Made by a program: the position numbers and the translations under genes | Notes under the pieces: model-generated | The model's database searches: none | What the model was told of the DNA's origin: nothing | Seen by the model: only the letters and a program-made list of their open reading frames with translations | Part shown: piece by piece, positions 1 to 46,821 of the stretch | Position numbering within the stretch: the first letter of the stretch is position 1 | Layout: the number at the start of each line of letters is the position of its first letter | Source: a virus | Lineage: Duplodnaviria; Caudoviricetes | Strand: one strand, 5' to 3' | Virus record (IMG/VR): IMGVR_UViG_3300036987_000019 | Location: 1 to 46,821 of that record | DNA: 46,821 nt

Positions 1-45
1 TTGGCACGGGCGTGGCAACAGCTCTCGCGACGCCTTCAAGCGCGA
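1..45. repeat. Terminal direct repeat, left copy (circular assembly overlap)
   Basis: TTGGCACGGG...TTCAAGCGCGA at 1-45 is identical to 46777-46821, and the ORF stays in frame across the junction. Confidence 0.95.
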
Positions 46-1115
46 ACATTGCATCTGCAGTCACGGATGAGACGGGCTCGGGGGCTCTTGTTTTCGCAAC
101 ATCACCCACGCTCGTTACTCCAGCGCTCGGAACGCCGTCGTCCGGCACGCTTACGAATGCCACAGGCCTCCCGATCTCAACGGGTGTCAGCGGCCTCGGG
201 ACGGGTGTCGCCACATACTTGGCGACACCATCCAGCGCCAACCTTGCCGCCGCCATGACGGATGAGACAGGTTCAGGGTCCGTAGTTTTCGCCACATCAC
301 CAACTCTGGTCACGCCTGCGCTCGGCACCCCATCATCAGCCACGCTGACAAACGCGACAGGTCTTCCTGTCTCGACGGGAATTAGCGGATTAGGGACCGG
401 TGTTGCCACGTTTCTTGCAACGCCGTCGACCGCAAACCTGGCAGCGGCAGTAACTGGAGAGACCGGCTCTGGCGCGCTAGTCTTTGGCACCTCGCCAAAC
501 ATCACGACCCCGACCGGAATCGTCAAAGGCGACGTCGGGCTTGGAAACGTCGACAACACGTCAGACACGACCAAGAATGCGGCGGCGGTCACACTCACGA
601 ACAAGACGATCTCGGCGCCAGCAATCACCGGATTAGCGGATATTCAGGGGGCGGCGAAGTTCACCGGCATCTCCAGCCCAACGCAGATCACCGCCACTCA
701 GAACGACTACAATCCAAGCTCCGTCATCTGCTCGACGGCTGAAACCTTGCGCCTGACATCGGATGCGTCACGGGACGTCACCGGCCTTGCCGGCGGCGTT
801 TCAGGATGTCAGCTCGTCATCATGAACGTGGGATCAAACCCGATCGTTCTGAAAGATCAGGCGGCCGGATCGACGGCGACCAATCGTCTTGCTCTTGGCG
901 GTGATGCCACGATCGCAACGCAGGCGTCATACGCCCTTCGCTATGACGGCACGTCATCACGTTGGCGGCCGCTGGTCTCCCCCGGAGCGGGCGGAGGCGG
1001 AGGCGGAGGCGTCACTTCTGTTGCGTGCGCCGAGGGCGCGCAGTGCTCGACCATCACCACAACCGGAACCGTCAAAACAACCTATGCCCGTCACTTCATG
1101 ATGGGCGGAATGTGA
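1..1115 (+). CDS. 3' part of a tail-fibre-like protein (begins at 46203; about 562 aa in total)
   Basis: In frame with the ATG at 46203. Has 65-aa Thr/Gly/Ala repeats and the fibre-shaft motif KGDVGLGNVDNTSD, and lies at the end of the tail operon. Confidence 0.85.
   Translation, partial: GTGVATALATPSSANIASAVTDETGSGALVFATSPTLVTPALGTPSSGTLTNATGLPISTGVSGLGTGVATYLATPSSANLAAAMTDETGSGSVVFATSPTLVTPALGTPSSATLTNATGLPVSTGISGLGTGVATFLATPSTANLAAAVTGETGSGALVFGTSPNITTPTGIVKGDVGLGNVDNTSDTTKNAAAVTLTNKTISAPAITGLADIQGAAKFTGISSPTQITATQNDYNPSSVICSTAETLRLTSDASRDVTGLAGGVSGCQLVIMNVGSNPIVLKDQAAGSTATNRLALGGDATIATQASYALRYDGTSSRWRPLVSPGAGGGGGGGVTSVACAEGAQCSTITTTGTVKTTYARHFMMGGM
12..500 (+). repeat. 195-bp (65-aa) tandem coding repeats in the fibre gene
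   Basis: The VATxLATPSxAN...ETGSG...FATSPTLVTPALGTP unit recurs at 12, 207 and 402, plus a partial copy before the junction, with synonymous divergence. Confidence 0.9.
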
Positions 1116-1117
1116 GA

Positions 1118-1525
1118 ATGAACATGAAGATTTTCGGATTCATCAAGGCGTCAATTCTTGCACTGGGCCTGCTCATTGCGCCGCTCTCGGCAAACAGCGC
1201 TGAAGTGCTGAAGGTTCTCGGACAACTCAATCCGTCCGCAACCACGGCGACAACGCTCTACACGGTTCCGGCGTCGACTTCGACTGTCGTTTCCACCATC
1301 ACGGTGGCGAACCAGGCGGCAAGCGCGGGGTCATTCCGGATCGCCATTCGGCCTGCTGGCGCAACACTCGCGGCGCTGCATTACATCGCCTACGATACGG
1401 CGATACCCGCCAATAATACGATCGTCCTGACGCTGGGACTGACTCTTGCCGCAACTGATGTTGTGACGGTCTACGCCAGTTCGGCGTCGATCTCATTCAG
1501 CATCTTCGGCTCTGAACTTTCCTGA
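1118..1525 (+). CDS. Small beta-rich virion-type protein with N-terminal signal peptide
   Basis: MNMKIFGFIKASILALGLLIAPLSANSA leader. The mature part (KVLGQLNPSATTATTLYTVPASTSTVVSTITVANQ...FGSELS) resembles small tail-associated proteins I recall from uncultured tailed phages. Confidence 0.75.
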   Translation: MNMKIFGFIKASILALGLLIAPLSANSAEVLKVLGQLNPSATTATTLYTVPASTSTVVSTITVANQAASAGSFRIAIRPAGATLAALHYIAYDTAIPANNTIVLTLGLTLAATDVVTVYASSASISFSIFGSELS

Positions 1526-1539
1526 TCGGAGCGCAGAAC

Positions 1540-2526
1540 ATGATCAAGGGATTTAAGCCAGCATCGCGCATTCTTGCTGGGTTGGCCGCACTTGCGTTGG
1601 TCGCGTGGGGATGGCCGCAGGCCGACGCCCGCGTGGGCCTTCTTTCAGATCGCCTGATCTCGACGCAGAGCATCAATAACGGGTTTGTTGCATCTCCTTC
1701 GACAGTCAGCGTTCTCGTCGTAGGTGCTGGTGGCTCCGGCGGCGGCGGGCCGGCTGGAAATGACTTCGGTGCCGGTGGTGGTGCGGGTGGCGATGTCGAA
1801 ACAGCGAGCTCAATTTCAGTCGCGCCTGGCGTTGCATACACCATCACGGTCGGGACGAGCGCTGGTGTAACAGCGATCGGCACACGCGGACTGAATGGAG
1901 GCACATCGATCGCGGCGCTTGGCTCAACTGTCACAGCACCCGGCGGTGGTGGCGGCGGGACACGATACACCGGCGGCGGCGCCGGCCTGACCGGTGGCTC
2001 TGGGGGCGGCAGCACTTACAATCTCGGCACCGGCATATCCGGGACCGCGGGGTCTGGCGGAACGGCTCACATCTTTGCTGGCGGCATCTATAACGCCGGT
2101 GGTGCCGGTGGTGGCGGTGGCGGCGCGGGCGGCGCAGGTTCGAACGCGCCAGGTACAAGCGGAGGCGCTGGCGGCGCCGGCTTCTCTTCCTCGATCTCTG
2201 GCTCGGCTGTGACTTATGGTGGCGGTGGCGGCGGTGGCGGCGGTACTGGTGCTACGACAAGTTCGGGTGGTTCTGGCGGCGGCGGTACTGGTGGCGGTGT
2301 AGGCGCGGCCGGCGGCAACTGTACTCAGGCCAACTCTGGCTCAGGTGGCGGTGGCGGCGGATCAAACTCGGGCAATACGGGCGGCGCCGGGTGCGACGGT
2401 GTTGTGATTATTTCGTATCCATCGAACTATGTGGCGGCATCATCCACTACCGGATCCCCGACGGTCACAATCTCCGGCGGCAATCGGATTTACACCTTCA
2501 CGTCAAGCGGCAGCATCACGTTTTAA
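1540..2526 (+). CDS. Glycine-rich domain tail/receptor-binding-type protein with signal peptide
   Basis: LVVGAGGSGG...GGGGGG...GVVIISYP...IYTFTSSGSITF is a typical phage glycine-rich domain. N-terminal leader ends in ADA; GGAG upstream. Confidence 0.8.
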   Translation: MIKGFKPASRILAGLAALALVAWGWPQADARVGLLSDRLISTQSINNGFVASPSTVSVLVVGAGGSGGGGPAGNDFGAGGGAGGDVETASSISVAPGVAYTITVGTSAGVTAIGTRGLNGGTSIAALGSTVTAPGGGGGGTRYTGGGAGLTGGSGGGSTYNLGTGISGTAGSGGTAHIFAGGIYNAGGAGGGGGGAGGAGSNAPGTSGGAGGAGFSSSISGSAVTYGGGGGGGGGTGATTSSGGSGGGGTGGGVGAAGGNCTQANSGSGGGGGGSNSGNTGGAGCDGVVIISYPSNYVAASSTTGSPTVTISGGNRIYTFTSSGSITF

Positions 2527-3435
2527 ATCTATCTTGGTCCACACAGTCTGCGTTGCGAGATGGGTGGCAAATCCGCGCTTGAAATATCCAATATCGATCT
2601 CTTTCGGTGTAGCATCTTCCAGCGGGACCACACCAAGGTCGAAAGTCTTCATTCCGCGCTGTCTGCTACGGAGGATTGACTCGTAAATGTTCAAGTGCCC
2701 CATCGGCTTATCAAACCGCTCTCGATCATAGACGCCAGTGGCGTAGTGGGATATTTCGGTCCCATCTACGATTAGGGAGCCCGCAACGAGTTCGCCGGTT
2801 TTCAATCGTCCAAGGACAAGTTCACCGCGACCTTCGAAGCACGATTCAAACATGATATCCCACGTTTCCTGGGATCGTGTAACTCGACCCGCGACCTTTT
2901 TGTGAAACTCTTGAAATTCATCACAAGCGGACCGGTCTTTATTTTCGATGTTGACGAAAGAGAGATCGATGTTTCTTCGTCCCCAATTAATAAGAGAGCG
3001 AAAGCTCTTGCGCAGATGCCGATGAATTTCATCGGGGCTGAGCAACAAATCGCATTGCGCTTCTAGCCGAACCTTTGGCAGAAAGCCGCGCCGAAGGCAT
3101 GCTGCCCCCAGTTGGGAGGTTTTGCCGAGCGATAGTGGATCGGAAATCTTTGCAGCCGAGATAGAGAGCTTATCAAGTGTGTCAAAAGCTCTTTCCATCT
3201 CCTTTTCCGAGCAATCGGCGGGTGAAGTGACTTGAGCTGGGAAGCCATAGAAATCGAGAAGGTTGCTGCCAAGCGTTGCGTCAAAACGAACGCGACCAGA
3301 AACGAAACTAATGTCTCTGCGGTCTTCGCCGAAATACGCTGGGTAATACTTTCGACCGAAAGCGCCGAAGCACGGGTGGCGATGGTCGATCTGCGGTGTT
3401 GGGGCGCTGATCGCCTCTTGCATTTCCTGAACCAC
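2503..3435 (-). CDS. GNAT/FemAB-like (acyl/aminoacyl transferase fold) moron
   Basis: DLLLSPDEIHRHLRKSFRSLIN and YATGVYDR...GMKTFDLG...IGYFKRGF are FemAB/GNAT-like motifs. Opposite strand and visibly AT-richer than its flanks. Confidence 0.7.
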   Translation of the reverse strand: MVQEMQEAISAPTPQIDHRHPCFGAFGRKYYPAYFGEDRRDISFVSGRVRFDATLGSNLLDFYGFPAQVTSPADCSEKEMERAFDTLDKLSISAAKISDPLSLGKTSQLGAACLRRGFLPKVRLEAQCDLLLSPDEIHRHLRKSFRSLINWGRRNIDLSFVNIENKDRSACDEFQEFHKKVAGRVTRSQETWDIMFESCFEGRGELVLGRLKTGELVAGSLIVDGTEISHYATGVYDRERFDKPMGHLNIYESILRSRQRGMKTFDLGVVPLEDATPKEIDIGYFKRGFATHLATQTVWTKIDLKRDAAA

Positions 3436-3849: not shown

Positions 3850-4413
3850 ATGATCGACCGCAAGGTGTTCTTCGCCGGCATCCGCCAGGGGCCGTTCCCC
3901 GGCAAGCTGACGGCGGGGCAGGTGGCGGGTACGTCCGCCATTCTCGACGAGTGGGAGCGGCGCGGCCTGACCGACCTACGCTGGCTGGCCTACATGCTCG
4001 GCACCACGAAATGGGAAACCGACCACACTATGCAGCCCATCAAAGAGGGCGGCTCGCTGAAGTATCTCAAGGGCAAGAAGTACTGGCCTTGGTACGGGCG
4101 GGGCTACGTGCAGCTCACATGGAAAGCGAACTATCAGAAGTTTCAGGCGCGGGTCAAAAAGCTGTTCGGCGTGGACATCATAGCGGACGCCGATCTTGCC
4201 ATGCGCCCGGACGTCGCTGCCTTCATCATGTTCGAAGGCATGATCAACGGTGAGTTCACGGGCAAGAAGCTCAAAGACTATTTCACGGCCAGCAAGACCG
4301 ATTGGCTGGGCGCGCGCCGCATTATCAACGGCGTCGATCGCAAAGACGAAATCGCAGCCATCGCCAAGCAATTCTACGCCGACCTGACCGCCGCTATTGG
4401 GCTGGCAGCGTAA
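3850..4413 (+). CDS. Endolysin, glycoside hydrolase family 19-like
   Basis: LAYMLGTTKWET, YGRGYVQLTW..NY and ARRIING motifs; GGAGA RBS before ATG 3850. Confidence 0.9.
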   Translation: MIDRKVFFAGIRQGPFPGKLTAGQVAGTSAILDEWERRGLTDLRWLAYMLGTTKWETDHTMQPIKEGGSLKYLKGKKYWPWYGRGYVQLTWKANYQKFQARVKKLFGVDIIADADLAMRPDVAAFIMFEGMINGEFTGKKLKDYFTASKTDWLGARRIINGVDRKDEIAAIAKQFYADLTAAIGLAA

Positions 4414-4469
4414 CCACACCGCGCGCGGGCGGCCTCCCGCGCAAATCCTCACATCAATGGAGACGTTAC

Positions 4470-4724
4470 ATGAAATGGGACACCGTTTGGCAGATCGCGC
4501 GCTACATCCTGATCGCGGTCGGCAGCTTCGCGACCGGCAAGGGCTGGGTCACAGCAGATCAGGTTACCGCAGTCGTCGGCGCAATCGGAACGATCGGCGC
4601 TGTCCTCTGGGGCCTGTTCGTCAAGTCTGGCACCACTGCCGTTCCTGACGCGGTGGCGGCCCGCGCTGACGTGCCGACCGTGTCGGCGGCGACTGGCGCT
4701 GTTTCGACCGGCCCCGGCCTGTGA
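4470..4724 (+). CDS. Putative holin
   Basis: 84 aa with two hydrophobic segments, directly after the endolysin; GGAGA RBS. Confidence 0.7.
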   Translation: MKWDTVWQIARYILIAVGSFATGKGWVTADQVTAVVGAIGTIGAVLWGLFVKSGTTAVPDAVAARADVPTVSAATGAVSTGPGL

Positions 4725-4978
4725 GTTGGACGGCACTATTGGCGGCGGCGATTAAATCGCTGCCGCTGATCCTCCAGCTTATCCAGCAGTTCAAGTCTAG
4801 CGCTGATGCCAAGGTGCAGCGCGGGCTGGGCAGGGATGAGGCTGTAGCGGAATCTTTGACCGAATTCGCTCGCAAAGTCGGCATCGCGAACGAAGTTGAA
4901 GCCGAGGCGGCGAAGGATCACGCAAGCAAGCCCGACGACACAGCGTTCGATCCAGAATTTCAGCGAAAGGACATCTGA
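4721..4978 (+). CDS. Putative i-spanin-like protein
   Basis: Hydrophobic N-terminus then helical Ala/Glu-rich body; GTGA-coupled to the holin. Confidence 0.5.
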   Translation: MSWTALLAAAIKSLPLILQLIQQFKSSADAKVQRGLGRDEAVAESLTEFARKVGIANEVEAEAAKDHASKPDDTAFDPEFQRKDI

Positions 4979-5157
4979 TGCTGTGCTTCGGAATCCTCGT
5001 GATGGTCTGTCAGCTTCAGCAGCAACCCGTTCCCGTCGATACGTTCTGCCAAATCGCCAAGCCGATCTATTGGAGCTCGTCGGATACGCGGGCAACGAAA
5101 GAGCAAGCCGACAAGCATAACCGCGTTTGGAAAAAACTCTGCAAGCCTGCGGGCTAG
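4978..5157 (+). CDS. Putative o-spanin-like protein (59 aa, not in ORF track)
   Basis: MLCFGILVMVCQ...FCQIAKPIYWSSSDTRATKEQADKHNRVWKKLC. The C...IYWS..DT...HN....LC pattern is typical of alphaproteobacterial Rz1-like proteins; TGATG coupling. Confidence 0.6.
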   Translation: MLCFGILVMVCQLQQQPVPVDTFCQIAKPIYWSSSDTRATKEQADKHNRVWKKLCKPAG

Positions 5158-5595: not shown

Positions 5596-6165
5596 ATGAT
5601 CCGCGTGTTTCTCGCGGGGCTCGGCTATGCCGTGACCTCGGGCTTCATTCTTGCCTTCGCTCTCTTGGTCGCCACTCCGGTGGACGCAAATGGGCTGCAT
5701 CCCCGGTGCAATATCGACTGGCCGTGCGCTTCAACGGATGCCCGGGTCAGACCCGGGCATGTCGCCCGACGCATCGCCCGCGCCGACCGCTTCCGTAACG
5801 TCGAGTTCGGCTCTCCGATGTATCCCCCGGAGACGGCGCGGAGTTGGCTGAATGGCCTATCCAAGCCCGCCCGCTACATCAGCGGCCGCTTGATCTGCGC
5901 GATCAACGTCAATGCAGCGCTGGCTGAGCGAGGTATCCGGGGCACCGGATCGGCGCTGGCGCATTCGTTCGATCATTGGGGCCGCGCCTCCAGTCCGACG
6001 CCGGGCGCCGTAGCGGTCACGGACAGGCGGGGAGGCGGGCACGTCGCTATTGTCTCTCGGGTCGAGGGCGGGCGGGTCTTCGTCTGGAATCCATCCTCGC
6101 GGGGGCGAGGCTGGCGCGAGGTCGAGTACACAAACCGACGCGCTCGGTATCGGGTGGCGGGGTGA
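5596..6165 (+). CDS. Exported CHAP/NlpC-like cysteine amidase
   Basis: Signal or anchor N-terminus; ICAINVN...SALAHSF..WG...PGAVAV...GGGHVAIV gives the CHAP-like Cys/His dyad; GAAAGGA RBS. Confidence 0.65.
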   Translation: MIRVFLAGLGYAVTSGFILAFALLVATPVDANGLHPRCNIDWPCASTDARVRPGHVARRIARADRFRNVEFGSPMYPPETARSWLNGLSKPARYISGRLICAINVNAALAERGIRGTGSALAHSFDHWGRASSPTPGAVAVTDRRGGGHVAIVSRVEGGRVFVWNPSSRGRGWREVEYTNRRARYRVAG

Positions 6166-6362
6166 GGCGGCGCTTTTTCGTCGCCACCGCAATATATCTC
6201 GCCGTCGCCGCAACGGCGTATCCAGTTATTTCCAGGTCTTTGGGCGGTCCAGCCATAGGTAGAATAGGTGCCGCGTTGGCATGGCCGGCGTGGTCAATTA
6301 TCGGGGCGCTAGATCTGCTTTGGCAGCACGCGCTCGATCCGCGATTCCGGAGCGCGCAATGA
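6162..6362 (+). CDS. Small membrane protein
   Basis: GTGA-coupled 66-aa ORF with two hydrophobic segments. Confidence 0.6.
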   Translation: MRRRFFVATAIYLAVAATAYPVISRSLGGPAIGRIGAALAWPAWSIIGALDLLWQHALDPRFRSAQ

Positions 6363-8685: not shown

Positions 8686-9279
8686 TCAAACGCTGAGTGA
8701 TCTACGCAGTTGCTTGACCCATTCCGCGCGGCTTGCCGTCCGCTCGACTTCCTTGGCGTGCTCAGCGGCGTGATAACCAACGTTGTGCTGAGCCTTCTCC
8801 AGCTCAGTGGAGAGCCAATCCTTGCCAGACAATCGCACGGGTTCAGGGGAGCGATAGCTTCCACGTCTCGACATAACGAGTTGGTCGATCATGAACTTCT
8901 TCATCTCGGTGTGGTTGGCTGTTGGCGGCGTCCATGCCTCTACCTTCTTAATCATTGAGTTCAGGCGGCGCTCGGCTTCTGCTTCCTTCGCCTCGTATTC
9001 CTGGTGGGACTTCATGGCCTCATTGAACGCGCCCGTCGCGCTGGCTTCAGCCTCGTCAATGGTCATGACGTTCAGCCGCGCAAGTCGATCTTTGGCATCT
9101 GCCAGCCGTTTTTCGTGGAAGTCGCCCGGCTTGAACTCTTCAGGAATCGGCGCGTCCTGTGGTTCATCTCGCATTGTGATCAGTGCACCGAAGGCGCGAG
9201 CACAAGACATAGCGAAATCCTTGAACTCTGTGATCTCGCCATTTGCGACGGGGTAAGTGTATCCGGTTGCCATCTTCAA
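8686..9279 (-). CDS. Hypothetical phage protein
   Basis: 197-aa ORF (TGYT...FAMSCARAFGALITMRD) with GGAGA RBS. Confidence 0.75.
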   Translation of the reverse strand: MKMATGYTYPVANGEITEFKDFAMSCARAFGALITMRDEPQDAPIPEEFKPGDFHEKRLADAKDRLARLNVMTIDEAEASATGAFNEAMKSHQEYEAKEAEAERRLNSMIKKVEAWTPPTANHTEMKKFMIDQLVMSRRGSYRSPEPVRLSGKDWLSTELEKAQHNVGYHAAEHAKEVERTASRAEWVKQLRRSLSV

Positions 9280-10157
9280 TTCTCCGTCAGTGGTTGCAGT
9301 ATGGTCGGGGACTGTTCTGCTGGTGGGCGCGTATCCGCAACCGCTAAAAACTTCACGCGGTACGTGCGATATTTTGACCGATGATCTTCCTCGCAGAAGC
9401 GACGGAATGTCTGCTCGTGAGTTTCGCCGGGAAACATTTCAATGCTCGTTCCCATCATGCCGCCCTTCCACGATCCCTTTTCGGGACCGACTTCATTGGC
9501 GAAACTCATATCCAGCGAGCGTCGGCGCTTCTTTGGTGCGAAAATTCCAAGCCACTTGAACCAGCCCGTTCCAAGCGACCAGACGCGCTCCTCGATGTAG
9601 GTCTCGACGGAAATCTGCTCATTGTCGAAATCCTCAATCATGAAACCTACACGCGATATCGCGTCTTTGATGGGGCTATAGCGCTCCCACGGCAGGCTTG
9701 CGATGTTCTCGCTGGCGGCACCGTCTGCGCCATACAGAATGTGAGAGATTTGCCGCCATTGCGTCCACGGAAGGTGCTTGCACCAGCTTTGTTCGATACG
9801 GCTATCCATCATGGACCCGCCGTTCCGCCCGTACTTCACTTGCAGAAATCCGGCGCTATAGCTGACGCCATAGGTGCGCTGGTCAATTTCCCAATAGAAG
9901 TTCCTGCCTAACCGCTTGACGGTCTCAGCATCCCAGTCTGGGTATCGCTTCTCACGATGTGGCTTGACGATATGTGGCAACACCGACGCGAATGTAAACC
10001 ATGGCGTACTAACTCGCAGAAAGCATTTATCGTCGTTTGATGAATCGCGATCCCCAGCGGATTCCAGCATAATCGCCCAATGCGGGTACGGCTTTCCTGA
10101 TGCAAAAGTAAAAGGACCAATATAGCGGTCGTTGTCACCCCATCGCATTGCTCTCAT
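9276..10157 (-). CDS. Hypothetical phage protein
   Basis: 293-aa ORF with GGAGA RBS, coupled to the next gene. Confidence 0.75.
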   Translation of the reverse strand: MRAMRWGDNDRYIGPFTFASGKPYPHWAIMLESAGDRDSSNDDKCFLRVSTPWFTFASVLPHIVKPHREKRYPDWDAETVKRLGRNFYWEIDQRTYGVSYSAGFLQVKYGRNGGSMMDSRIEQSWCKHLPWTQWRQISHILYGADGAASENIASLPWERYSPIKDAISRVGFMIEDFDNEQISVETYIEERVWSLGTGWFKWLGIFAPKKRRRSLDMSFANEVGPEKGSWKGGMMGTSIEMFPGETHEQTFRRFCEEDHRSKYRTYRVKFLAVADTRPPAEQSPTILQPLTEN

Positions 10158-10190
10158 CTTGATCTCCGAAAAGTGGTTGCGGTACGTGTC

Positions 10191-10832
10191 CTAAATGTTC
10201 TGTGTCGATTCCGGCTTCGTGCAGTGGGTCTCTTTCTGCTCACCCCTCTTCGCTAAAGGGGGGAGAGAGCGGATAGATTCTGCTACATCGTTGCAAGCCT
10301 GCTCATAGGCCATTTCTGCATAGCCGTTCGAGTCGTCACGGTAGTTCAACTGATTGGAGTGCTGACGATTGTCGAGCGCGATAGCAGCACACCGCTCTAT
10401 CGTTTCTACCTCTACTCTTGAGAGTTCGGGTTCGGCGGCGAGGGCGCGTTGCTTCGCTGCGCTTAATTCATCATCGTATAGAAGGCCATTCTCGCGCCCC
10501 TCGGCGGCCAGCCTCATGAACTCACTGGATTCGCGCAGCTCGTTCCGCGTTTCTTTGAAGGACTCAAGGAATGGCGGCCCGATAGACGACTCCAGTGTCG
10601 TCAACAAACTTCCATAGTCATGCGCGGCTGCTGAGCAGTATTTCCGCAGTCGGTCCCGCTCCGCCTCCAGTTCGGTGATGCGTGCGGCGGGGACAAGCGA
10701 TAGCCCGTGATCAGCCATCATTGTCCTGATGGTCTTCGTCTCCCAATCACCGACAAACGCTTCCAGGTATTCCCAGAATTGTTCTGGCGTCCACCCGCGA
10801 TCCACCAAGCTCTGGCTCGCGCTGTCTGTCAT
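10191..10832 (-). CDS. Hypothetical coiled-coil protein (Ea/Ead-region-like)
   Basis: ARITELEAERDRLR...ETIERCAAIA...VAESIRSL mosaic typical of early-left genes. Confidence 0.65.
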   Translation of the reverse strand: MTDSASQSLVDRGWTPEQFWEYLEAFVGDWETKTIRTMMADHGLSLVPAARITELEAERDRLRKYCSAAAHDYGSLLTTLESSIGPPFLESFKETRNELRESSEFMRLAAEGRENGLLYDDELSAAKQRALAAEPELSRVEVETIERCAAIALDNRQHSNQLNYRDDSNGYAEMAYEQACNDVAESIRSLPPLAKRGEQKETHCTKPESTQNI

Positions 10833-11131
10833 GGGCGGCTCCAATCGTTGCCATACATGTCAAAGTGGCGGGCCTGTAGACCGTGAGCGACGGCAATCTG
10901 ATTGACGACGGATGCAGGCACACCCTTGCCGGAATCTTTGTAGCGGAATCCGCTGGAGCTGCACCAGTCGCAACGCCCCGTCATCGCAGGCGCATCGCAA
11001 TACCATTGCTTGCGCTTGCCATTTCCACGGCACGACCAGCAGATGGTGATGCCATCCGGCAACTTGTCGAATTGGATGTCCTGCGCATCCAGGTTTGGCT
11101 TTTCGATATAAACCTCGATCCGTTCCGTCAT
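10829..11131 (-). CDS. Small Cys-rich zinc-finger protein
   Basis: CWSCRGNG...CDWCSSSG; ATGA coupling. Confidence 0.6.
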   Translation of the reverse strand: MTERIEVYIEKPNLDAQDIQFDKLPDGITICWSCRGNGKRKQWYCDAPAMTGRCDWCSSSGFRYKDSGKGVPASVVNQIAVAHGLQARHFDMYGNDWSRP

Positions 11132-11367
11132 GGCTTTGTCCCCCGTCCTTGGGTAAGTGCTGCACGGCCTGCGTCGGTGGCTTTCTTCGCGCGCAAAGGG
11201 CTTTCGTATAATTCCGTCCACGCGCGGTTTGCGGCGTAGCGAATTGGATGGCTTTCGCTGATCTCACGCGCATTGTTGGAGATGATCGAAAGGCGCTTCA
11301 TCACATCGGTGAGATCGGCGTCGAGTTGTTTCTGCGCCTCACTCAGCCTCACGGCGGGATCGGTCAT
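11128..11367 (-). CDS. Hypothetical protein
   Basis: 79 aa, AAGGAG RBS. Confidence 0.65.
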   Translation of the reverse strand: MTDPAVRLSEAQKQLDADLTDVMKRLSIISNNAREISESHPIRYAANRAWTELYESPLRAKKATDAGRAALTQGRGTKP

Positions 11368-16281: not shown

Positions 16282-16881
16282 TCAATAATATTTCAGAGCG
16301 TAAGCGACGTGGCTCATGCTTCGGCCAGGCTTCCCGCCGCAGTGCTTGTTCCAATAGGAGGAAAATCCCTCATTGTCTGAGGTGTATGCCTTTTTGGCGG
16401 CGATGACCGCCCTCCCTGGCACTAAGGCGTTGAATGAATTCGCCGCGCGGTAGGTGAAGCAGAGAGCCCCCGCGTCCGTTTTTATGGTCTCTTCGAGCTT
16501 AAAACTGTCGGGGTTTTTCATGCTTTGTTTCAGGGCCCGCGCCGCCCGCACAGCGATCTGAAACTCGATTTCTTCGACCGCTTTGGCGGCATCCTCTTCG
16601 GCCTTCCGTGCCACGGCCTCTTTGTCCGCTTTGGCCTTCGCAGATGCGGTGGCCTGACGCTGCACCTCTGCTACGGCCCGTTCGTCGACTAACCGCTTCT
16701 TCCATACATCGGGGTCGAAGACCTGAGAGGAGAGGGCGCGCTGATAATCGGCGTGATTCTCGAAGCCGCGCTGCTTGGCGCTGGTATCCAGGTTTTGCTG
16801 TTTCCAGGCTTCATACGATCCCCACGCAAAAACCGAGCCGCCTATAATTCCAACAATTAAAACCTTCCTTTTCCAGCCCAA
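16282..16881 (-). CDS. Membrane-anchored protein co-transcribed with cI
   Basis: N-terminal transmembrane segment, coiled linker, and a C-terminal MKNPDSF...C..YRAANSFNA domain; GGAGG RBS right after the cI stop. Confidence 0.7.
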   Translation of the reverse strand: MGWKRKVLIVGIIGGSVFAWGSYEAWKQQNLDTSAKQRGFENHADYQRALSSQVFDPDVWKKRLVDERAVAEVQRQATASAKAKADKEAVARKAEEDAAKAVEEIEFQIAVRAARALKQSMKNPDSFKLEETIKTDAGALCFTYRAANSFNALVPGRAVIAAKKAYTSDNEGFSSYWNKHCGGKPGRSMSHVAYALKYY

Positions 16882-18699: not shown

Positions 18700-19151
18700 G
18701 CGATGCGCAGATTGCATTGAAGGCAGCAACGCGCCGGGCCGTGAAGATGGCGGGCGGGTCCGTCGCTGCATCGAAAGACCTGCGCGTCGATCAGGGGCGG
18801 CTATCGAACTATGGGAACGCGGATGGGCCGCTATACGCGCCCATTGATGTTGCGTTCGATCTTGACCGGCTCGCTGGCGACAACGTCATCCTTCGCGCTT
18901 GGGCCGATCTCTGCGGCTTCGATCTATCTCCTCGCGATGCGAGCGGCGCGGCGTCCCACGATCTCACCGTCGCCGCCGGCCAGGTCGCACGCGAATCCGG
19001 CGAACTGATTTCAGCAACCATCGAAGCTGCGGCAGACGGCAAGGTCACGCCGAATGAGGCGCGCGCTATCGATGAAGCCGCCGCCGATCTTCAAGAAAAA
19101 GTTGTCGACATTCGAGAGGCCGCACGCCGATCGATGGTCGCTCGTTCGTAA
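18693..19151 (+). CDS. CII-like phage regulatory protein
   Basis: N-terminal HTH-like segment and C-terminal ESGE...[15 protein letters not shown]; position after cro. Confidence 0.65.
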
Positions 19152-19191
19152 CCCGCTCGCATCACTGCGGCATCTAGAAGGGGAGTTGGAT

Positions 19192-19788
19192 ATGCAGGGG
19201 CAAGAAAGCGTTTTGTATTTTCAGCCGCGCACGTTGACTCCATCTGCGCTGATGTTTGCCGCCGCGCGCCGGGAGCGACTTGCCCGCATGGAGCGGGCCG
19301 CGCTGCAACAGGTCGTCAAAGCAATCGAATGCACCACGGCGGACAGAACAGAGCCGCCGCCCGTCGAAAAACCACAGCAAGAAAGCCCAGATGACGATTG
19401 GGCTGATCGGCAAAAGAAACTCTGGTTTGGCGTCGTCGCAGATCTCGGGCCCGTAACGCCGAGAGCAATCCACATCAGCGATATTCAGAAGGCTGCGGCG
19501 AATTTCTACAACAGCACCGTCACCGACATGTGCGGCCCCCGCCGAACAGCGCAAGTCGTGCGCGCCCGTCAAATTGCGATGTACCTCGCCAAGACGCTGA
19601 CGCTACGGTCACTTCCGGACGTCGGCCGGCGCTTCGGTAATCGTGACCACACCACGGTTCTCCATGCCGTTCGCAAGATCGAAGGGCTTTTGCCGCGAGA
19701 CCCAAATCTCGTTGCTGAAATCGAGTTTCTTAAAAGCGAAGTTTCGGCCTGCACGGCGCGCAACACAGCAGCGATGCCGGTGGAGTAG
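19192..19788 (+). CDS. Protein with DnaA C-terminal (domain IV) DNA-binding domain
   Basis: [40 protein letters not shown] signature; no AAA+ domain. Confidence 0.9.
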
Positions 19789-20144: not shown

Positions 20145-20500
20145 AATTGGCTGAGCTAGGCGAACTCGCGGCGGCGGAGAAGGTCATCAAGGATCTTCAG
20201 GCCAAGCTGGCCGCTTTGTCGGACGCGGAAGACCAAATCACTGCGCTGAAGATCGATTTGGCTGAGGCTCGCGACGAGATCGCGGGCCTTGAAGCAACAA
20301 ACTCCAGCCTTAACGACGATCTCGACGATCTGAATGCGAAGATTGAAGAGCTCGAAGAGGCGGGAGATGTCACGGGCGCGGTTGACGCGTTCCTCGACTG
20401 CTGCGAGCGCGTCGGCCCCTTGCGTTACGTGGTGCCGCAGAGCGATAGGGCGTCGCAGGCCATCGTCGCGCTTCACGACGCAATCGGGGCGACGCCATGA
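20141..20500 (+). CDS. Coiled-coil hypothetical protein
   Basis: ATGA-coupled, heptad-rich. Confidence 0.65.
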   Translation: MKLAELGELAAAEKVIKDLQAKLAALSDAEDQITALKIDLAEARDEIAGLEATNSSLNDDLDDLNAKIEELEEAGDVTGAVDAFLDCCERVGPLRYVVPQSDRASQAIVALHDAIGATP

Positions 20501-21603
20501 AGTGCACCGTCAACGCAGGGGAATTCCTGGCTGCACTCCGATCTGTTCAGGCCCGCGCCAAGCATACCGGATCAATCGACATCCTCAGGCACATCCGGCT
20601 CGATGTCGCCAATGATCGCCTGACGCTGCTCGGCCACGATATGGAATCATGCAGTATCGACACTGTCGAGGCCGACGACGCCGAGGCGGGCGCGTGCTGT
20701 GTGCCGGCCGATCCTCTGGTCCGATTGATCACCGGCCTCCCGAAGCAATCGACCGTCATCATCCAGCCGGAAGGCACGTCCGCACTGATCAAGTCCGGCC
20801 GGTCGCGTTATAAACTGCCGATCCTTCAGGCTGATGTCTTCCCCGACGCGCTTGTTCCGGAAGGCGGCATCCGCGTCACACTCTCCGCCGATGACGTGAA
20901 GCAGCTTTTCGAGCGACCGGCGGCCGGGTTGAACCCGAAGGATGAGAGACCCATCGCGTCGGGCGTGTGGCTGCACGAGGAGGGCGGAAATCTCGTTAGC
21001 GCCAGCTACGCCACGTACAATCTGATGCGCTTCGCCACCGAGATAGCCGCGCAAGGGTTTGCCGGCGTGATGGTGCAGAAGTCGACGATGGACGAACTCG
21101 CCCGGTTCGGACCTGGGGTGCTGACAATCTCTAAGTCGCTCATCTCAATTGAGAATGGCGCGCGCCGGTATTGTTCGAAACTGGTGGAGGCGTCGTTCCC
21201 GGAGTCATACCGGAAGACCATTCCGGCCACGTCCGGCGCCTTCGTGGATGTTGACCGCGCTGAACTGACGTCCTGCCTTAGCAGGTTGGCGAGCATTTCG
21301 GACTTCAGCAACACGAACATGGTCGATCTTCGGGTGGAAGAAGGCGACCTGAGCCTGTCGCTCGTCGGCACCGCTGACGGCATGGAGAACATGGAATGCG
21401 ACGTCAGCGGTGCGGCCGGGCTTCGCGTCTGCGCGCCAGCTCAGCAACTGCTGACCGCGGTCAAGATCCACACTGGCGACAAGCTCCGCATCTACATGCG
21501 CGGCGAAATGGACCCGTTCCGCATTGTGGACGAGACCGAGCCGACGGCCGTCAATGTCCAGATGCCGTGCCTTTCCAAGAACAGGGAGGCGCAGGCGGCA
21601 TGA
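20497..21603 (+). CDS. dnaN: DNA polymerase III beta sliding clamp homolog
   Basis: 368 aa; IL..I.L......LTL.GHDME, SGRSRYKLP...FP, SKLVEASFP.SY and terminal MP follow the beta-clamp pattern. Confidence 0.85.
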   Translation: MKCTVNAGEFLAALRSVQARAKHTGSIDILRHIRLDVANDRLTLLGHDMESCSIDTVEADDAEAGACCVPADPLVRLITGLPKQSTVIIQPEGTSALIKSGRSRYKLPILQADVFPDALVPEGGIRVTLSADDVKQLFERPAAGLNPKDERPIASGVWLHEEGGNLVSASYATYNLMRFATEIAAQGFAGVMVQKSTMDELARFGPGVLTISKSLISIENGARRYCSKLVEASFPESYRKTIPATSGAFVDVDRAELTSCLSRLASISDFSNTNMVDLRVEEGDLSLSLVGTADGMENMECDVSGAAGLRVCAPAQQLLTAVKIHTGDKLRIYMRGEMDPFRIVDETEPTAVNVQMPCLSKNREAQAA

Positions 21604-29338: not shown

Positions 29339-29400
29339 GGCGTTTTCTTTCGGGACCGGTCGTCGCCCAAAAAATCTACGCGTGCAATTCTGAGGTGTTT
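29315..29400. other. Putative cos site region
   Basis: GGGGGTCAAAATCTCT...GACCGGTCGTCGCCCAAAAAA between HNH and terS, the usual position in HK97-type cos phages. Exact cut site unknown. Confidence 0.5.
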
Positions 29401-29406
29401 TTCCCC

Positions 29407-29877: not shown

Positions 29878-29878
29878 C

Positions 29879-31600: not shown

Positions 31601-31608
31601 AGGTATCG

Positions 31609-33593: not shown

Positions 33594-33599
33594 TTCGAA

Positions 33600-34823: not shown

Positions 34824-34838
34824 GGCTGAAATCCTATC

Positions 34839-41782: not shown

Positions 41783-42589
41783 ATGATCGTCATTTCCAGC
41801 AACTATGTCCTGTCACCGGCGGCGGCAGCGGCGGACCCAGACCTTCCGGCGGTCGGCTATCACAACGTGGTGCGCGCGGACTCCATCGTCGTGGATACGC
41901 AAGAGGAGAACTACCCAGCCTCAAATCTCGCAAATCCGGCCACGCATCTCGAATGGCGGGCAGCGGACGACAGCGAGCAATACATCACGATCACGACAAA
42001 CGAAGTCGATCCGATAGATTACGTCGGGATCGCGCGGCACAACCTCGGGACAGCCGAGATCGTCGTTTCGGTTGAAGCAAATATTGATGCCGTCTGGACC
42101 GAGATCGTCGAAGAAACGATGCTGCCGGACGACACGCCTGCGGTGCTCCGGTTCGCGGCCGCGTCGTATTCGCAGGTTCGCATTCGCCTGCAAACGGGAT
42201 CTGATGCGGCGCGCATCGCGGTTGTCTATTGCGGGAAGCTCCTAGATCTGGAGCGCAAGGTTTGGGTCGGGCACACGCCACTGCCTTACGCGCGCAAGAT
42301 CGACGTGGCCAGCAATCGTAGCGTGAGCGGAAACTTCCTCGGCAGGATCATTCTCGGGGAGGGCCGCGAGTCCACCATCCCGCTCTCGCTGTTCACGCCA
42401 TCATGGTATCGCGCGAACATGGACGCCTTCCTCGTCGCGGCGCAGGAAATCCCGTTCTTCTTCGCGTGGCGTCCAAGCACCTATCCCAACGAGGTTGGAT
42501 TCTGCGATCTCGTCGATGATCCGATGCCCACGCCAGTCGGGCCGAGCAATCTGCTTGCGTTCGACCTTAAAGTGAATGGTGTGGCGTGA
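41783..42589 (+). CDS. Distal tail/baseplate protein
   Basis: 268-aa ORF right after the tape measure gene (YPASNLANPATHLEW...DYVGIARHNL). The call is positional. Confidence 0.65.
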   Translation: MIVISSNYVLSPAAAAADPDLPAVGYHNVVRADSIVVDTQEENYPASNLANPATHLEWRAADDSEQYITITTNEVDPIDYVGIARHNLGTAEIVVSVEANIDAVWTEIVEETMLPDDTPAVLRFAAASYSQVRIRLQTGSDAARIAVVYCGKLLDLERKVWVGHTPLPYARKIDVASNRSVSGNFLGRIILGEGRESTIPLSLFTPSWYRANMDAFLVAAQEIPFFFAWRPSTYPNEVGFCDLVDDPMPTPVGPSNLLAFDLKVNGVA

Positions 42590-45558
42590 AGGCGCTCGAA
42601 TACATCGAGATCGACATTCCTGTTTGTAGTTTGATCTACGGGACAGCACCTTGCACGGCCTCGATCCCAACGACAGGCGCGATCAAGTGCTTCAACACAC
42701 GAGCCACCTGTCAGGATAGAGACAATCTGACCGAGGCTGACGTTACGCTGCGGTTTGCAAAGCCGACTTCATACCTTCCGAAAGAAATCGACTGCATCCC
42801 GAATGTGCAGGAAACGTCTTTCACGCCCGCAACAATCTCGCTCGGTGAAAATCTCGGAACGCGCGCAACGCTCAGCGCGACGTTTTTCGACGAGCCTCAT
42901 TCCGATACGGGCGAAGGCTTCGACAAGTACCTTGCAGACCGCGACTATAATCCGTGGGAGCAGGGGACGTTCTGGGGAAAATTCCGCGCCCGTCAGCCGT
43001 TCCTGCGGGGCTGCAATATCAGACTGATTAGAGGCCTTAAGGGTCAAGCCCTTGAGGAAATGGAAACCCGGCATTTCATCATCGAGAGTTTCGACGGACC
43101 GACGCCTGACGGAAAATATACGCTCGTTGCAAAGGATGTTCTGAAGCTCATCGACGGTGACCGCGCACTTGCTCCAGCCGTCAGCACCGGGTTTCTGGTT
43201 TCGGCGATCACGAGCAGCGCTACGGCTGCAACACTCTCGCCCGCAGGAGTCGGAGACGCAGAATACCCTTTAGAAGGCTATCTCGCGATAGGTGGGAAGG
43301 AGATCGTTTCATTTACGCGCGGTCAGCCAGACCCAGCAGGTGAGAACGACGAAGCCACTAAAATCCTGCTTCATTTTGATGGCGCGGACGGCAGCGCTGT
43401 TATAGTCGATTCCGCGCAAGGTGCGACTTCACCCGCTCACTCATGGCTGGCGGTAGGTGCTGCTCTAAGCACTATCGACAAGCAATTCGGGACTGCGTCA
43501 CTAAAGACAGTATCCGGCTATATCACCGCTTCCGCGCATGTTGATTATCGGCTTGGTGTGCTGCCGTGGTGCATTGAATTTTTCCTCAATTGCAACGGAA
43601 CATCGGGCCAGGTGGCCCTTGCCGGCCAGATTGGCGGCGGCCTTGGCGGGTCAGGAAACACCTCATTTTATATTCTGAGGACGACGGCAAATAAGATCGC
43701 CCTGACTGTGTCAGACGGAAGTTCATTCACCTCCGTCACCGGAACAACATCAGTCAACGACACAACAAGGCGTCATATTTCATGTAAGCGCGTCGGTAAC
43801 GTACTTCGGCTTTATGTCAATGGAGTGCAAGAAGGCGGCGACGTTGCCTTCACTGGGTCAATCCCTAATAGCACGGCAAACTTCTCCATTGGACGCGCGG
43901 GAGATTATACGGGATTTGCCGCCGCCTCTGTCTATATCGATGAATTTAGGCTGTCGGTAGGTTCATCACGGAACAACTCGGTGCCGTCAGCGGCGTATTC
44001 TGCGAACACACCACCAATCTCCACGGGCAACGCGATTACGATCACTGCTCGCGGGCTTTTTAATACAGTGGCAGTTCCAGCCAGCGCGCAGGACAGAGTC
44101 CAACTCGTTCTTCCGTATACTTCTGATGATCCATCAGTAATCATCTACGATCTGATGGTGAACTACGCCGACGTCCCGGCCGGATTTATCAATCTCTCCG
44201 ATTGGCAGGCCGAAACCGCTACGTTCCTTGGGCGTCTCTACAGCGCTATTATTTGTGAGCCTACGTCAGTCGCGACGCTTGTTTCGGAGTTGATCCAGCA
44301 GGCCGGGCTTTGCATCTGGTGGGATGACATCGCGCGAAAGGTGCGGCTCCAGGTCTTGCGCGGAATCGTGACGGACGCTGCGAGGTTCACGCCCGACAAT
44401 TACATCTCGCTATCGACCAAAGAGCAGCCGGACAAACGTATCTCACAAGTCCTGACCTATTTCGGACAGATCAATCCGCTCAAAAATATCTCCGATCTCG
44501 ACAACTATCGTTCTTCGTCGCTGGTTAAAGACGTCGAAGCGGAAAGCGATTATGGCGGAGCTGTCATCAAGAAAATTCTCTCCCGCTGGATTCCCGGCGT
44601 CGGCGGCCGAACGGTCGCGGATCGTCTCGGCACGATCCTGCTTTCAAGATACCGCGACCCGCCCCGGAGACTGACATTCGATCTTGGTCGCTATGCGGGG
44701 ACGGACGTTTCCCTCGGTGGTGGTTATCGCGTTTCGGCGCATTGTTTTCAGGATGAGACCGGGGCGCTCGTTGATGTTCCTGTCCAAGTCACGCGACTGA
44801 ATCCTCCAGCAGATCGGTTCAAGGTCGAAGCTGAGGAAGTTCTATTTGCGTCTTCAAACGACGATCCAAACTTCCATCCGATCGTCATCGACGCGAACAC
44901 AACGAACGTCAATTTGCGGGCGGTGCACGATTCGATCTACGGGACGCCGAATGCAGATACGGTTGTCGAGTGCAGAATTCTCGCGGGCGTTAAGGTCACA
45001 TCCGCTAGCCGATTACTCCCGTCATTCGATGTGGGGTCGTGGCCCGCCGGCGTAACGATCACTCTCATTGTCGAGGGTGATCTACGGGCGGCAGGCGGCA
45101 ATGGCGGCCAGTGCTACTACCCCGGCCTCGGAGCAGGGCAACCCGGCACGCCGGGTGGCACCGCGCTCTACACGCGCCAAGCCATCAATCTTAGGCTTCC
45201 GGCAGGCAGCAAGCTTTGGGGCGGCGGTGGCGGAGGCGGTGGCGGCGGCGCGAACGATCTCGGTAAATATGCCGGTGGCGGTGGTGGCGGTGCGGGCGAC
45301 ATCCCGGGTATAGGCGGCGGTGGTGCGTACTATCCGGGAGCCACCGGCACAGACACGACGGGCGGCGCTGGAAGCCCCGGCGAGCCCGCAACCCTGCAGG
45401 GCGGAAACGGCGGCGGCCCCGGTTTAGCCGGCGCCACTGGTCCGGGATCGACGGCTCCGGGCGGCGCGGGCGGCGCGGCAGGCGCTGCAATCGACGGCGT
45501 CAGTCACGTCACCATCACCGTTACAGGCGGGGATTCCCGCGGTTCTCTGATCAATTAG
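42586..45558 (+). CDS. Tail tip/hub protein with inserted LamG-like domain and glycine-rich C-terminus
   Basis: N-terminal C..IYG..PC.A...KCFNT..TC; internal LLHFDGADGS...LYVNG...IDEFRLS lectin-like domain; Gly-rich tail. Confidence 0.8.
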   Translation: MKALEYIEIDIPVCSLIYGTAPCTASIPTTGAIKCFNTRATCQDRDNLTEADVTLRFAKPTSYLPKEIDCIPNVQETSFTPATISLGENLGTRATLSATFFDEPHSDTGEGFDKYLADRDYNPWEQGTFWGKFRARQPFLRGCNIRLIRGLKGQALEEMETRHFIIESFDGPTPDGKYTLVAKDVLKLIDGDRALAPAVSTGFLVSAITSSATAATLSPAGVGDAEYPLEGYLAIGGKEIVSFTRGQPDPAGENDEATKILLHFDGADGSAVIVDSAQGATSPAHSWLAVGAALSTIDKQFGTASLKTVSGYITASAHVDYRLGVLPWCIEFFLNCNGTSGQVALAGQIGGGLGGSGNTSFYILRTTANKIALTVSDGSSFTSVTGTTSVNDTTRRHISCKRVGNVLRLYVNGVQEGGDVAFTGSIPNSTANFSIGRAGDYTGFAAASVYIDEFRLSVGSSRNNSVPSAAYSANTPPISTGNAITITARGLFNTVAVPASAQDRVQLVLPYTSDDPSVIIYDLMVNYADVPAGFINLSDWQAETATFLGRLYSAIICEPTSVATLVSELIQQAGLCIWWDDIARKVRLQVLRGIVTDAARFTPDNYISLSTKEQPDKRISQVLTYFGQINPLKNISDLDNYRSSSLVKDVEAESDYGGAVIKKILSRWIPGVGGRTVADRLGTILLSRYRDPPRRLTFDLGRYAGTDVSLGGGYRVSAHCFQDETGALVDVPVQVTRLNPPADRFKVEAEEVLFASSNDDPNFHPIVIDANTTNVNLRAVHDSIYGTPNADTVVECRILAGVKVTSASRLLPSFDVGSWPAGVTITLIVEGDLRAAGGNGGQCYYPGLGAGQPGTPGGTALYTRQAINLRLPAGSKLWGGGGGGGGGGANDLGKYAGGGGGGAGDIPGIGGGGAYYPGATGTDTTGGAGSPGEPATLQGGNGGGPGLAGATGPGSTAPGGAGGAAGAAIDGVSHVTITVTGGDSRGSLIN

Positions 45559-45572: not shown

Positions 45573-46178
45573 ATGGTTCTCGCTGTTCACCACATCCAAG
45601 TGCAGGATTCTGAGGGCAACGTGGTGTCAGGCGCGCACGTCGAAGTTCGCCGCGAAGTGCCAGGCCAGCCGCTGGCAGCGCTGAAGTCGGATCGAGATGG
45701 CATTACTCCGCTCAGCAACCCATTCGATGTGAATAGTGTCGGTTACGGTGAGTTCTACGTGGCGGGCGGCTCCTATCAGGTCCGGGTGTACACCGGCCCG
45801 AGCGGCGCCCCGACCTTTGAGGCTCCGATCCGGCACAATGTCGCAATCGGGTTGCTGGCCGAAAGTGATTCAGCCGGATCGCGCGTGCCGCTGACTGTTA
45901 CAGAAGCCGGCGATGTCACTGCCGCCGTGGGGGTTGATGATTACTTCATTGAGAAGACTGTCGGGGCGGCTACAAACTTCTATCTCCCGAGCGCCGCGAG
46001 CCGCACAACGCCCATTCGCATCATCGATTCAAAGGGCGATGCGAACACGAACAACATCACCGTGATCCCTGTATCCGGAGAAACGATCTTCGCCATCGCT
46101 GACTACCATCACATCATTGATGGGAACGGCGGTCAGGTCACCTTGACGCCGCGTCCCGACGGGACCGGCTGGGTCTAA
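45573..46178 (+). CDS. Tail-associated protein (no signal peptide)
   Basis: QVQD..GNVVSGAHVEVRRE...LSNPF...G.GEFYV.GG.Y, then a C-terminal LP...I.D.KG.A..NNITV...ETI domain. Confidence 0.7.
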   Translation: MVLAVHHIQVQDSEGNVVSGAHVEVRREVPGQPLAALKSDRDGITPLSNPFDVNSVGYGEFYVAGGSYQVRVYTGPSGAPTFEAPIRHNVAIGLLAESDSAGSRVPLTVTEAGDVTAAVGVDDYFIEKTVGAATNFYLPSAASRTTPIRIIDSKGDANTNNITVIPVSGETIFAIADYHHIIDGNGGQVTLTPRPDGTGWV

Positions 46179-46202: not shown

Positions 46203-46821
46203 ATGAAGCATCTTCGCAGCATCTTTGCCGCAACACTTGCGCTTGCGCTGTCAGTGGGCATCGCATTCGGACAGAGTGGGCAGGGAAGTTCACCGCTTAC
46301 CGGAGCAAAGGGCGGCACGAACAACGGGTTCATGCAGTTCACCGGACCGGCTTCGTCGCTGAAGACCTACACGCTCCCGAATGCCTCTGACGCGATTGCG
46401 ACCCTCGCCGCGATCCAGACGGTAACTGGTGCGAAAACCTTCGCGAGCGCGAAACTATTACTGGCTGGTTCGTCTTCTGGCGCAGGCACGCTAAACGCAC
46501 CCGCCGCCGCGTCAACCTACGTTTGGACGCTCCCCGCCGCGACGGACACCCTCATCGGCAAGGCTACGACCGACACGCTAACGAATAAGACTTTCGACAC
46601 TGCCGGCACAGGCAACTCGTTTTCGATCAATGGCCTCGCGGCAACGTCGAACACGGGTACAGGCGCCGTCGTCCGAGCCACGTCGCCGACGCTGGTTACT
46701 CCAGCGCTGGGGACGCCTACGTCCGGCGTCCTGACCAACGCAACAGGCTTGCCGATCAGCACGGGTGTATCGGGGCTTGGCACGGGCGTGGCAACAGCTC
46801 TCGCGACGCCTTCAAGCGCGA
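46203..46821 (+). CDS. 5' part of the signal-peptide-bearing tail-fibre-like protein (continues at 1-1115)
   Basis: MKHLRSIFAATLALALSVGIAFGQ...TLTNKT...ATSPTLVTPALGTP; no stop before the window end and in frame across the overlap. Confidence 0.85.
   Translation, partial: MKHLRSIFAATLALALSVGIAFGQSGQGSSPLTGAKGGTNNGFMQFTGPASSLKTYTLPNASDAIATLAAIQTVTGAKTFASAKLLLAGSSSGAGTLNAPAAASTYVWTLPAATDTLIGKATTDTLTNKTFDTAGTGNSFSINGLAATSNTGTGAVVRATSPTLVTPALGTPTSGVLTNATGLPISTGVSGLGTGVATALATPSSA
46777..46821. repeat. Terminal direct repeat, right copy
   Basis: Identical to 1-45. Confidence 0.95.

Follow-up and report, generated by a model that had tools for sequence, protein, structure and literature searches.

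Signal peptides on three consecutive tail-fibre-type genes of a tailed phage: a probably exported module that may join the virion at lysis

How would a tail fibre that carries a signal for export become part of a virion, if it does so at all? Tail-fibre proteins of Caudoviricetes are expected to be synthesized in the cytoplasm without a signal peptide, whereas three consecutive genes of fibre or virion type in the IMG/VR virus record IMGVR_UViG_3300036987_000019, here called A, B and C, each begin with a predicted leader. The window analysed, positions 1 to 46,821 of that record (46,821 nucleotides), comprises the whole of a circular phage genome (46,776 bp) and a terminal overlap of 45 bp: its last 45 bases are a copy of its first 45 and have no other occurrence in the window, and IMG/VR classes the record as carrying direct terminal repeats and as 100% complete. 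The tail operon ends in four consecutive genes, namely a leaderless adaptor followed by the leader-bearing genes A, B and C, with the following features.

45573..46178, + strand: leaderless adaptor of 201 amino acids, proposed dock, with an N-terminal virion-anchor domain of about 95 amino acids and a C-terminal beta-sandwich of about 96 amino acids
46203..46271, + strand: predicted Sec-type signal peptide of fibre A, 23 amino acids, with the cut predicted before Gln24
46272..46821, + strand: mature N-terminus and shaft start of fibre A, with a conserved Gln-first motif, the proposed docking end; continues across the circular junction
1..1115, + strand: C-terminal part of fibre A, with shaft repeats of about 48 amino acids, a PF25692 beta-sandwich and a C-terminal F-[LM]-M-G-G-type motif
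1118..1525, + strand: B, a signal peptide and a jelly-roll of 108 amino acids, starting at 1118 or 1124; proposed connector between fibre and tip
1540..2526, + strand: C, a signal peptide and a glycine-rich PF21722 (Gly_rich_2) domain with two cysteines; proposed adhesin tip

The module occupies the position of a tail fibre, 3' of the tape measure, tail-tip and adaptor genes, and its products give PF25692, PF21722 and PHROG tail-fibre matches. Leaders were called by a rule-based test rather than by SignalP, the rules being a basic n-region, an uncharged h-region of nine residues with a mean Kyte-Doolittle value of at least 2.0, and small residues at -3 and -1. This test was positive on A, B and C, with cuts predicted after G23 in A, after S27 in B (A28 being also possible) and after A30 in C; all three calls are of the signal peptidase I (SPI) type, not of the lipoprotein type, and the domain search matched no membrane anchor or barrel family in the module. 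Among the other late genes (29257-46178), 17 of 18 were negative, including the adaptor gene, and the tape measure was positive only when read from an internal alternative start. The background of the test can be gauged from 80 loci of leaderless relatives, where 10 of 715 called genes were positive, and from homologue sets: 0 of the 150 best anchor/adaptor homologues, 0 of 101 short B homologues and 1 of 120 glycine-rich relatives of C, the last being distant and mostly low-complexity matches. The original prediction, made from this stretch alone, had read three consecutive leaders, no leader on the upstream tail genes including 45573-46178, and mature parts with ordinary structural-type domains, and each of these readings was borne out, the domains being PF25692 (near the C-terminus of A in the domain search), the jelly-roll of B and PF21722 in C. 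It had also joined the fibre across the contig ends. Joined in this manner, 46203->1115 reads through as a single open frame (562 amino acids), and the join can be regarded as real because an intact homologue (P0129) has the same length, with 90% identity over the first 156 amino acids and 94% (349/370) over the remainder. An assembly artefact at the junction is ruled out by the terminal repeats together with this homologue.

The leader of A was followed through 120 homologues of its N-terminal part. The mature motif Q-x-x-x-G-[TS]-S-P-L is present in 51 of them, and all 51 carry a leader of 18-30 amino acids, which ends with A, V, S or T at -3 and A or G at -1 and is followed by Gln as residue +1; in no protein of this set does the motif lie internally. 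Leaders also occur, with other architectures, in 33 of the 69 homologues that lack it. Between close relatives the fibre body is exchanged, whereas the leader and the start of the mature protein are retained, as in locus L193, which keeps only about the first 17 mature residues of A followed by a different body; variable bodies behind a conserved leader and motif represent the same behaviour as that of receptor-binding proteins. A DNA pattern for the fibre motif also matched unrelated genes (in about half of 20 loci, and in 6 of 11, lacking an adaptor, in a second set), which were excluded from all counts. As a separate observation, the leader-bearing fibre of L189 (Bradyrhizobium guangxiense CCBAU 53363, 9900-11318) lies in two frames that separate soon after the leader (76 and 370 amino acids), a break that could be due to decay, slippage or sequencing error.

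B matches PHROGs 1276, 693 and 11338, and its model (predicted local distance difference test score, pLDDT, 92.9) is most similar to the KHP40 cement trimer and nucleoplasmin (Z-score 9.9) and to the HFTV1 turret (Z 9.4), a generic jelly-roll fold which does not fix the position of the protein on the particle. One homologue, phiPsal1_021, is annotated as a putative virion structural protein, and matches for the family in the ESM Atlas are restricted to unnamed viral clusters. Several members, P0012 and P0022 among them, are named ‘glucose-6-phosphate dehydrogenase assembly protein OpcA’ by JGI, a name that seems to be an annotation error passed on from record to record, for what is a phage protein with a jelly-roll fold. 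In the best 120 of 7,810 matches the family is bimodal: 101 members have 109 amino acids and start at the mature start of B, and 19 (the query included) have 19-40 extra N-terminal residues of diverse sequence, which are leader-positive in 18 of the 19. None of the 80 IMG/VR loci retrieved with B has a leader, and a pattern meant to enrich leader-bearing B returned mostly leaderless forms.

B nearly always lies between a gene that ends in an F-[LM]-x-G-type motif (5') and a tip-like gene (3'), and the upstream gene ends in a similar F-[LM]-M-G-G-type motif in most leaderless loci. For 70 distinct B domains examined in their loci, 58 trios were complete and without any leader, one (L108) had all three leaders, two gave weak downstream-only calls and nine were incomplete. 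A further 33 distinct loci comprised 12 that were all-negative, one that was all-positive (the L108 phage again), 18 that were incomplete, one (L302) with leaders on B and on the next gene and with a truncated A, and one with a weak upstream-only call. In these sequence comparisons the leaders are inherited as a block on A-B-C. Runs of at least five consecutive leader-bearing fibre-like genes occur in other phages (L108, 5448-13203; L197, 324-7767).

Cysteine content differs between the two forms in a manner that fits folding of the leader-bearing proteins in an oxidising compartment. The single cysteine of B is kept in 99 of 101 leaderless forms versus 3 of 19 leader-bearing ones. Mature leader-bearing fibres have an even number of cysteines in 69 cases, an odd number in 10 and none in five (fibre A itself has four, at 435, 461, 534 and 540 in full-protein numbering), to be compared with 9 even, 15 odd and 12 none among leaderless matches from the same fibre search, and with 38 even, 45 odd and 6 none among leaderless anchor-fused fibres. 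Because the leaders sit exactly at the start of the leaderless homologues, vary in sequence with the n/h/c pattern kept, are inherited as a block and precede mostly even numbers of cysteines, A, B and C are very probably exported by Sec. The conservation expected by the original prediction is apparent, in that leaders are kept within a clade and other homologues begin at the mature N-terminus (101 of 120 for B; for the motif of A, 51 of 51 with a leader). Its proposal that the fibre module is exported stands on this comparative evidence; as to the fates it had offered, joining the virion is favoured over release as decoys or adhesins, as something that we infer from the gene which precedes the fibre.

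That gene, 45573-46178, looks like a dock for an exported fibre. In its model (mean pLDDT 65.6) the N-terminal domain is similar to the Pam1 tail chain (Z 9.2, root-mean-square deviation 2.1, 81 aligned residues) and to the head-binding domains of P22/Sf6 (Z 7.5), with the fibre anchors of Pan3 and lambda being similar too, and the C-terminal domain, in a low-confidence model, to residues 79-184 of CBA120 TSP4 (XD1/T4 gp9-like; Z 6.0, root-mean-square deviation 3.0, 77 aligned residues). Foldseek returned no match at E <= 0.001 for the adaptor or B model, and sequence searches of the PDB with the adaptor, B and C had no informative result. The N-terminal domain heads leaderless proteins of at least 350 amino acids in 89 of the 150 best homologues, and it also heads the Mtd-containing tail protein gp20 of Marinomonas phage P12026, which has the same gene order; the C-terminal domain sits on different or unrelated N-terminal domains in siphophage- and podophage-type tails. 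In a survey of 73 distinct domains, fetched by the adaptor C-terminal domain alone, the adaptor subtype was followed by a leader-bearing gene, with a mature start that is mostly Gln, in 33 of 36 distinct cases from viral loci, to be compared with 7 of the 32 evaluable cases among other forms of the domain (five were not evaluable). Among 401 bacterial genomes from the family to which Bradyrhizobium sp. DOA9 belongs, seven contain a total of eight adaptor matches, and each of these precedes a leader-bearing gene, two of the eight having been part of the query alignment. A natural fusion is represented by P0378, a leaderless single chain in which residues 1-208 are adaptor-like (35% identity) and are followed by a fibre shaft and then by a tip, the latter being 54% identical over 408 columns to the leader-bearing fibre P0123. 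It is because a leaderless anchor-bearing gene precedes such fibres, and because an adaptor-fibre fusion exists in nature, that joining the virion is favoured. A complex prediction for three adaptor C-terminal domains and three fibre N-termini of 60 amino acids scored 0.01 against a mark of 0.32, with the controls unfolded, a score that speaks neither for nor against docking. In the podophage-type loci L165 (7572-8612), L166 and L181 a second, apparently anchor-type fibre gene is also leader-bearing, and L171 (3159-4415) holds a leaderless homologue of this gene, thereby forming a matched pair.

The phage that carries this module encodes an HK97-type head, a lambda-like tail tube and a tape measure, as indicated by domain and PHROG matches, along with an integrase and a repressor-type gene, and on its gene content it is temperate. 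The named homologues of fibre A are mostly from Bradyrhizobium and Tardiphaga, Bradyrhizobium prophages show identical tail gene order, and the host is likely to fall within this Bradyrhizobium/Tardiphaga-type group. Two further features bear on how the virion may be completed.

42586..45558, + strand: central tail-tip protein, leaderless, with a LamG insert and a gp38-like C-terminus (PF13385, PF05268; phrog_11439 tail fibre)
3850..5157, + strand: lysis cassette, with a leaderless endolysin (3850-4413), a holin (4470-4724) and an Rz-like spanin (4978-5157)

The tail-tip product has 990 amino acids and 14 cysteines, and its LamG part looks inserted, given that relatives mostly have 757-785 amino acids.

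Taken together, we consider it probable that fibres folded in the periplasm join adaptor-bearing virions at lysis. According to this model, A, B and C would be made late, pass through Sec and lose their leaders to signal peptidase I (in A, ahead of Gln24), and would then form disulfides and assemble as fibre, connector and tip in the periplasm. The adaptor would meanwhile be bound to the tail tip in the cytoplasm through its head-binding-type N-terminal domain, and its free C-terminal beta-sandwich would receive the Gln-first N-terminus of mature A; the XD1-like domain is terminal here, such that its distal face would be free. Contact between the two parts would have to await the opening of the inner membrane by the holin and could take place up to or during removal of the outer membrane by the spanins, or else in the lysate. 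Such a route may bring two benefits: fibres could be stabilised by disulfides, and receptor-binding parts could be sheltered from cytoplasmic defences that act on tail fibres. The wider proposition, that virion assembly is divided between two compartments in tailed phages of several morphotypes (in this instance phages of Bradyrhizobium relatives), with lysis as an assembly step and a portable pair, in which the C-terminal beta-sandwich would be the socket and the Gln-first N-terminal peptide the plug, is given a chance only a little better than even.

Other fates of the module have to be weighed against this model. A, B and C might be exported and then freed at lysis as receptor decoys, blockers or effectors, with the virion using the cytoplasmic tail-tip protein. 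All evidence for export fits such a fate equally well, the tail-tip hub has gp38-like and LamG domains of its own, and non-virion receptor-directed phage products exist, such as T5 Llp and Campylobacter phage Gp047. Nevertheless, it is judged rather unlikely, since it leaves unexplained why a leaderless anchor that lacks a receptor-binding body stands before such fibres (33/36 and 8/8), why conservation is highest in the first mature residues, and why the fused P0378 exists. The temperate nature of the phage would also suit a role in lysogenic conversion, as an adhesin or a barrier to superinfection that the host displays, for which the signal-peptide-bearing, tail-fibre-like MAT proteins that are surface displayed in Bdellovibrio bacteriovorus, as described in passages of PMC10769870, offer a parallel. 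This is quite unlikely, however, for genes that occupy the fibre position in the late operon, with a gap of 24 bp to the adaptor gene, without a sigma-70-like promoter being found in 44800-46821, and that have SPI-type rather than lipoprotein leaders and no match to a membrane anchor or barrel family; moreover, in the 401 host-family genomes the motif-bearing fibre was found twice, in prophage tails and preceded by the adaptor in each case.

Two further alternatives concern the leaders themselves. They might act as uncleaved or slowly cleaved tethers, from which virions would collect fibres at the inner membrane before lysis: a hydrophobic N-terminus could serve in this way, and T4 proheads mature at the membrane according to passages of a T4 review (PMC9026906). 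The strict occupancy of -1 (A/G in 51/51) and -3 (A/V/S/T in 51/51) and the basic n-region point to cleavage and to N-in/C-out translocation, however, and the pairing of cysteines points to an oxidising compartment, which makes tethers very unlikely. It is highly improbable that the leaders are unused and that ordinary cytoplasmic fibres arise from a downstream translation start such as Met44 of A. This residue is invariant in 14 aligned N-termini, and leaderless forms are the norm for B and C; on the other hand, some homologues have Val at this position, and the conserved internal Met is not preceded by a ribosome-binding signal (+0.3 kcal/mol, 14 loci), leaving a start at Met44 unsupported, as compared to a mean of -4.4 kcal/mol (21 loci) 5' of the leader start, the latter being the best-scoring candidate and therefore biased in its favour. 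In addition, any start codon near the mature start is found in just 6 of 21 loci, and very different leader sequences all keep the n/h/c pattern.

Several points weigh against an exported fibre that docks on the adaptor, this last bias among them. Conservation of the leader of C is seen in two loci only, in the genes 3' of B in L108 and L302. Leader and cysteine counts are not phylogenetically independent: in a tree of the 19 leader-bearing and 45 of the 101 leaderless B domains just two label changes are needed, 18 of the 19 leader-bearing domains fall in one clade, and the loss of cysteine may be a single event. With respect to the dock, three of the 36 adaptor-type domains are without a leader-bearing neighbour, and the subtype was delimited only after early loci had been looked at. 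The similarity of the adaptor C-terminal domain to XD1 is weak (Z 6.0, low-confidence model), with PF07880 being below cut-off in 4 of 15 members, and in TSP4, gp9 and gp10 alike, XD1 is described by Chao et al. (PMC8825819) as a spacer to which no trimeric partner binds. P0378 represents one sequence only and lacks the Gln-first motif. Finally, the tail-tip protein 42586-45558 is a candidate cytoplasmic receptor-binding protein, and the exported module could thus be dispensable or located off the particle.

A search of the open-access PMC/bioRxiv literature did not turn up any description of tailed phages whose fibres bear signal peptides, and a precedent could lie in subscription papers or in supplementary tables of virion proteomes; the passages available from PMC3556154, PMC12309495, PMC12633290, 10.64898/2026.03.17.712343, PMC5723332, PMC12656738, PMC7824862, PMC13274417 and PMC11597636 contain nothing relevant, and no leader-bearing module was present in any cultured-phage match examined. 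The component parts belong to known domain families, and what would be new is the assembly route. In the standard account, as given for example in the T4 review (PMC9026906), tailed virions are finished in the cytoplasm before lysis, and the finding would surprise phage structural biologists, its virion step being one that we infer from sequence. If the model is correct, Sec, signal peptidase and probably the Dsb enzymes would be needed to complete the virion, lysis would be an assembly step, and co-infecting phages could exchange fibres. Cytoplasmic defences that modify tail fibres are known, for example Bil (10.1101/2023.09.04.556158), and host-range proteins would escape defences of this type, the link to Bil being our own suggestion. 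Receptor-binding proteins would go unnoticed wherever annotation pipelines class genes with a signal peptide as morons. The locus provides a likely socket and a likely plug, P0378 is a control fused by nature, and the module is carried by strains of Bradyrhizobium in culture, namely sp. DOA9 (L186), SYSU BS000235 (L188), PUT101 (L185) and AUGA SZCCT0176 (L191), making the question testable.

Elsewhere in the window, a GNAT-like gene (2503-3435, - strand; PF13480; guanine-plus-cytosine content 51% vs 59%) is convergent on the fibre module; it is likely a moron and might modify the host surface or a metabolite. The lysis cassette is followed by two further leader- or anchor-bearing genes, one for a CHAP-like secreted protein (5596-6165, + strand) and the other a small hydrophobic open reading frame (6162-6362, + strand). 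The product of 9276-10157 (- strand) is a strong match to Acb3, an inhibitor of the cyclic-oligonucleotide-based anti-phage signalling system CBASS (PF25187, E 3e-60), and a membrane-anchored protein is encoded next to the repressor (16282-16881, - strand). A DnaA C-terminal helix-turn-helix protein (19054-19788, + strand) and a homologue of the DNA polymerase III beta-clamp (20497-21603, + strand) are also present, as is an antiterminator of the NusG family (27767-28312, + strand) upstream of the late operon.

The module can be compared with several known systems. T4 gp9/gp10 and gp34-gp38, CBA120 TSP4 and G7C gp66 share with it, as proposed here with reference to passages of PMC8825819, the principle that a virion-anchored protein carries separately made receptor-binding chains; T4 fibres are likewise made separately and attached last, according to PMC9026906, and a glycine-rich tip is shared as well. 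In these phages, however, all chains are cytoplasmic and are attached before lysis, whereas here the distal chains have leaders and the anchor has none, and the docking domains of TSP4 and gp10 are XD2/XD3, not XD1. The MAT fibres of B. bacteriovorus, compared by description only, resemble the module in being exported, but as described in passages of PMC10769870 they are cellular surface adhesins with a conserved N-terminal domain of about 130 amino acids, many with an S74 chaperone, and without a virion. The domain search matched no S74 family in the window, and instead of chromosomal adhesins outside a tail operon, the genes of the module are part of a tail operon, in a phage genome that is complete.

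Leaderless A-B-C cassettes, such as phiPsal1_020-022 of a Pontimonas phage (109-amino-acid family, phrog_1276), have the same order of genes and the same upstream C-terminal motif, and B is 73-82% identical to the 109-amino-acid database homologues, but these cassettes are without leaders and have a conserved single cysteine in B. Marinomonas phage P12026 gp20 shares the N-terminal anchor and the gene order, with the difference that anchor and body form one leaderless chain, and P0378 shares both the anchor and the tip, again in one leaderless chain. Bradyrhizobium phage ppBjS10J-1, for which the literature search found no paper, has the same shaft repeat in a fibre (WAX24465.1) that is simply leaderless. 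The protein pIII of filamentous phages is a Sec-exported, disulfide-bonded receptor-binding protein that ends on a virion; unlike the module described here, it is membrane-anchored and added during non-lytic extrusion, whereas the present phage is a tailed phage of the HK97 type with a holin, an endolysin and a spanin.

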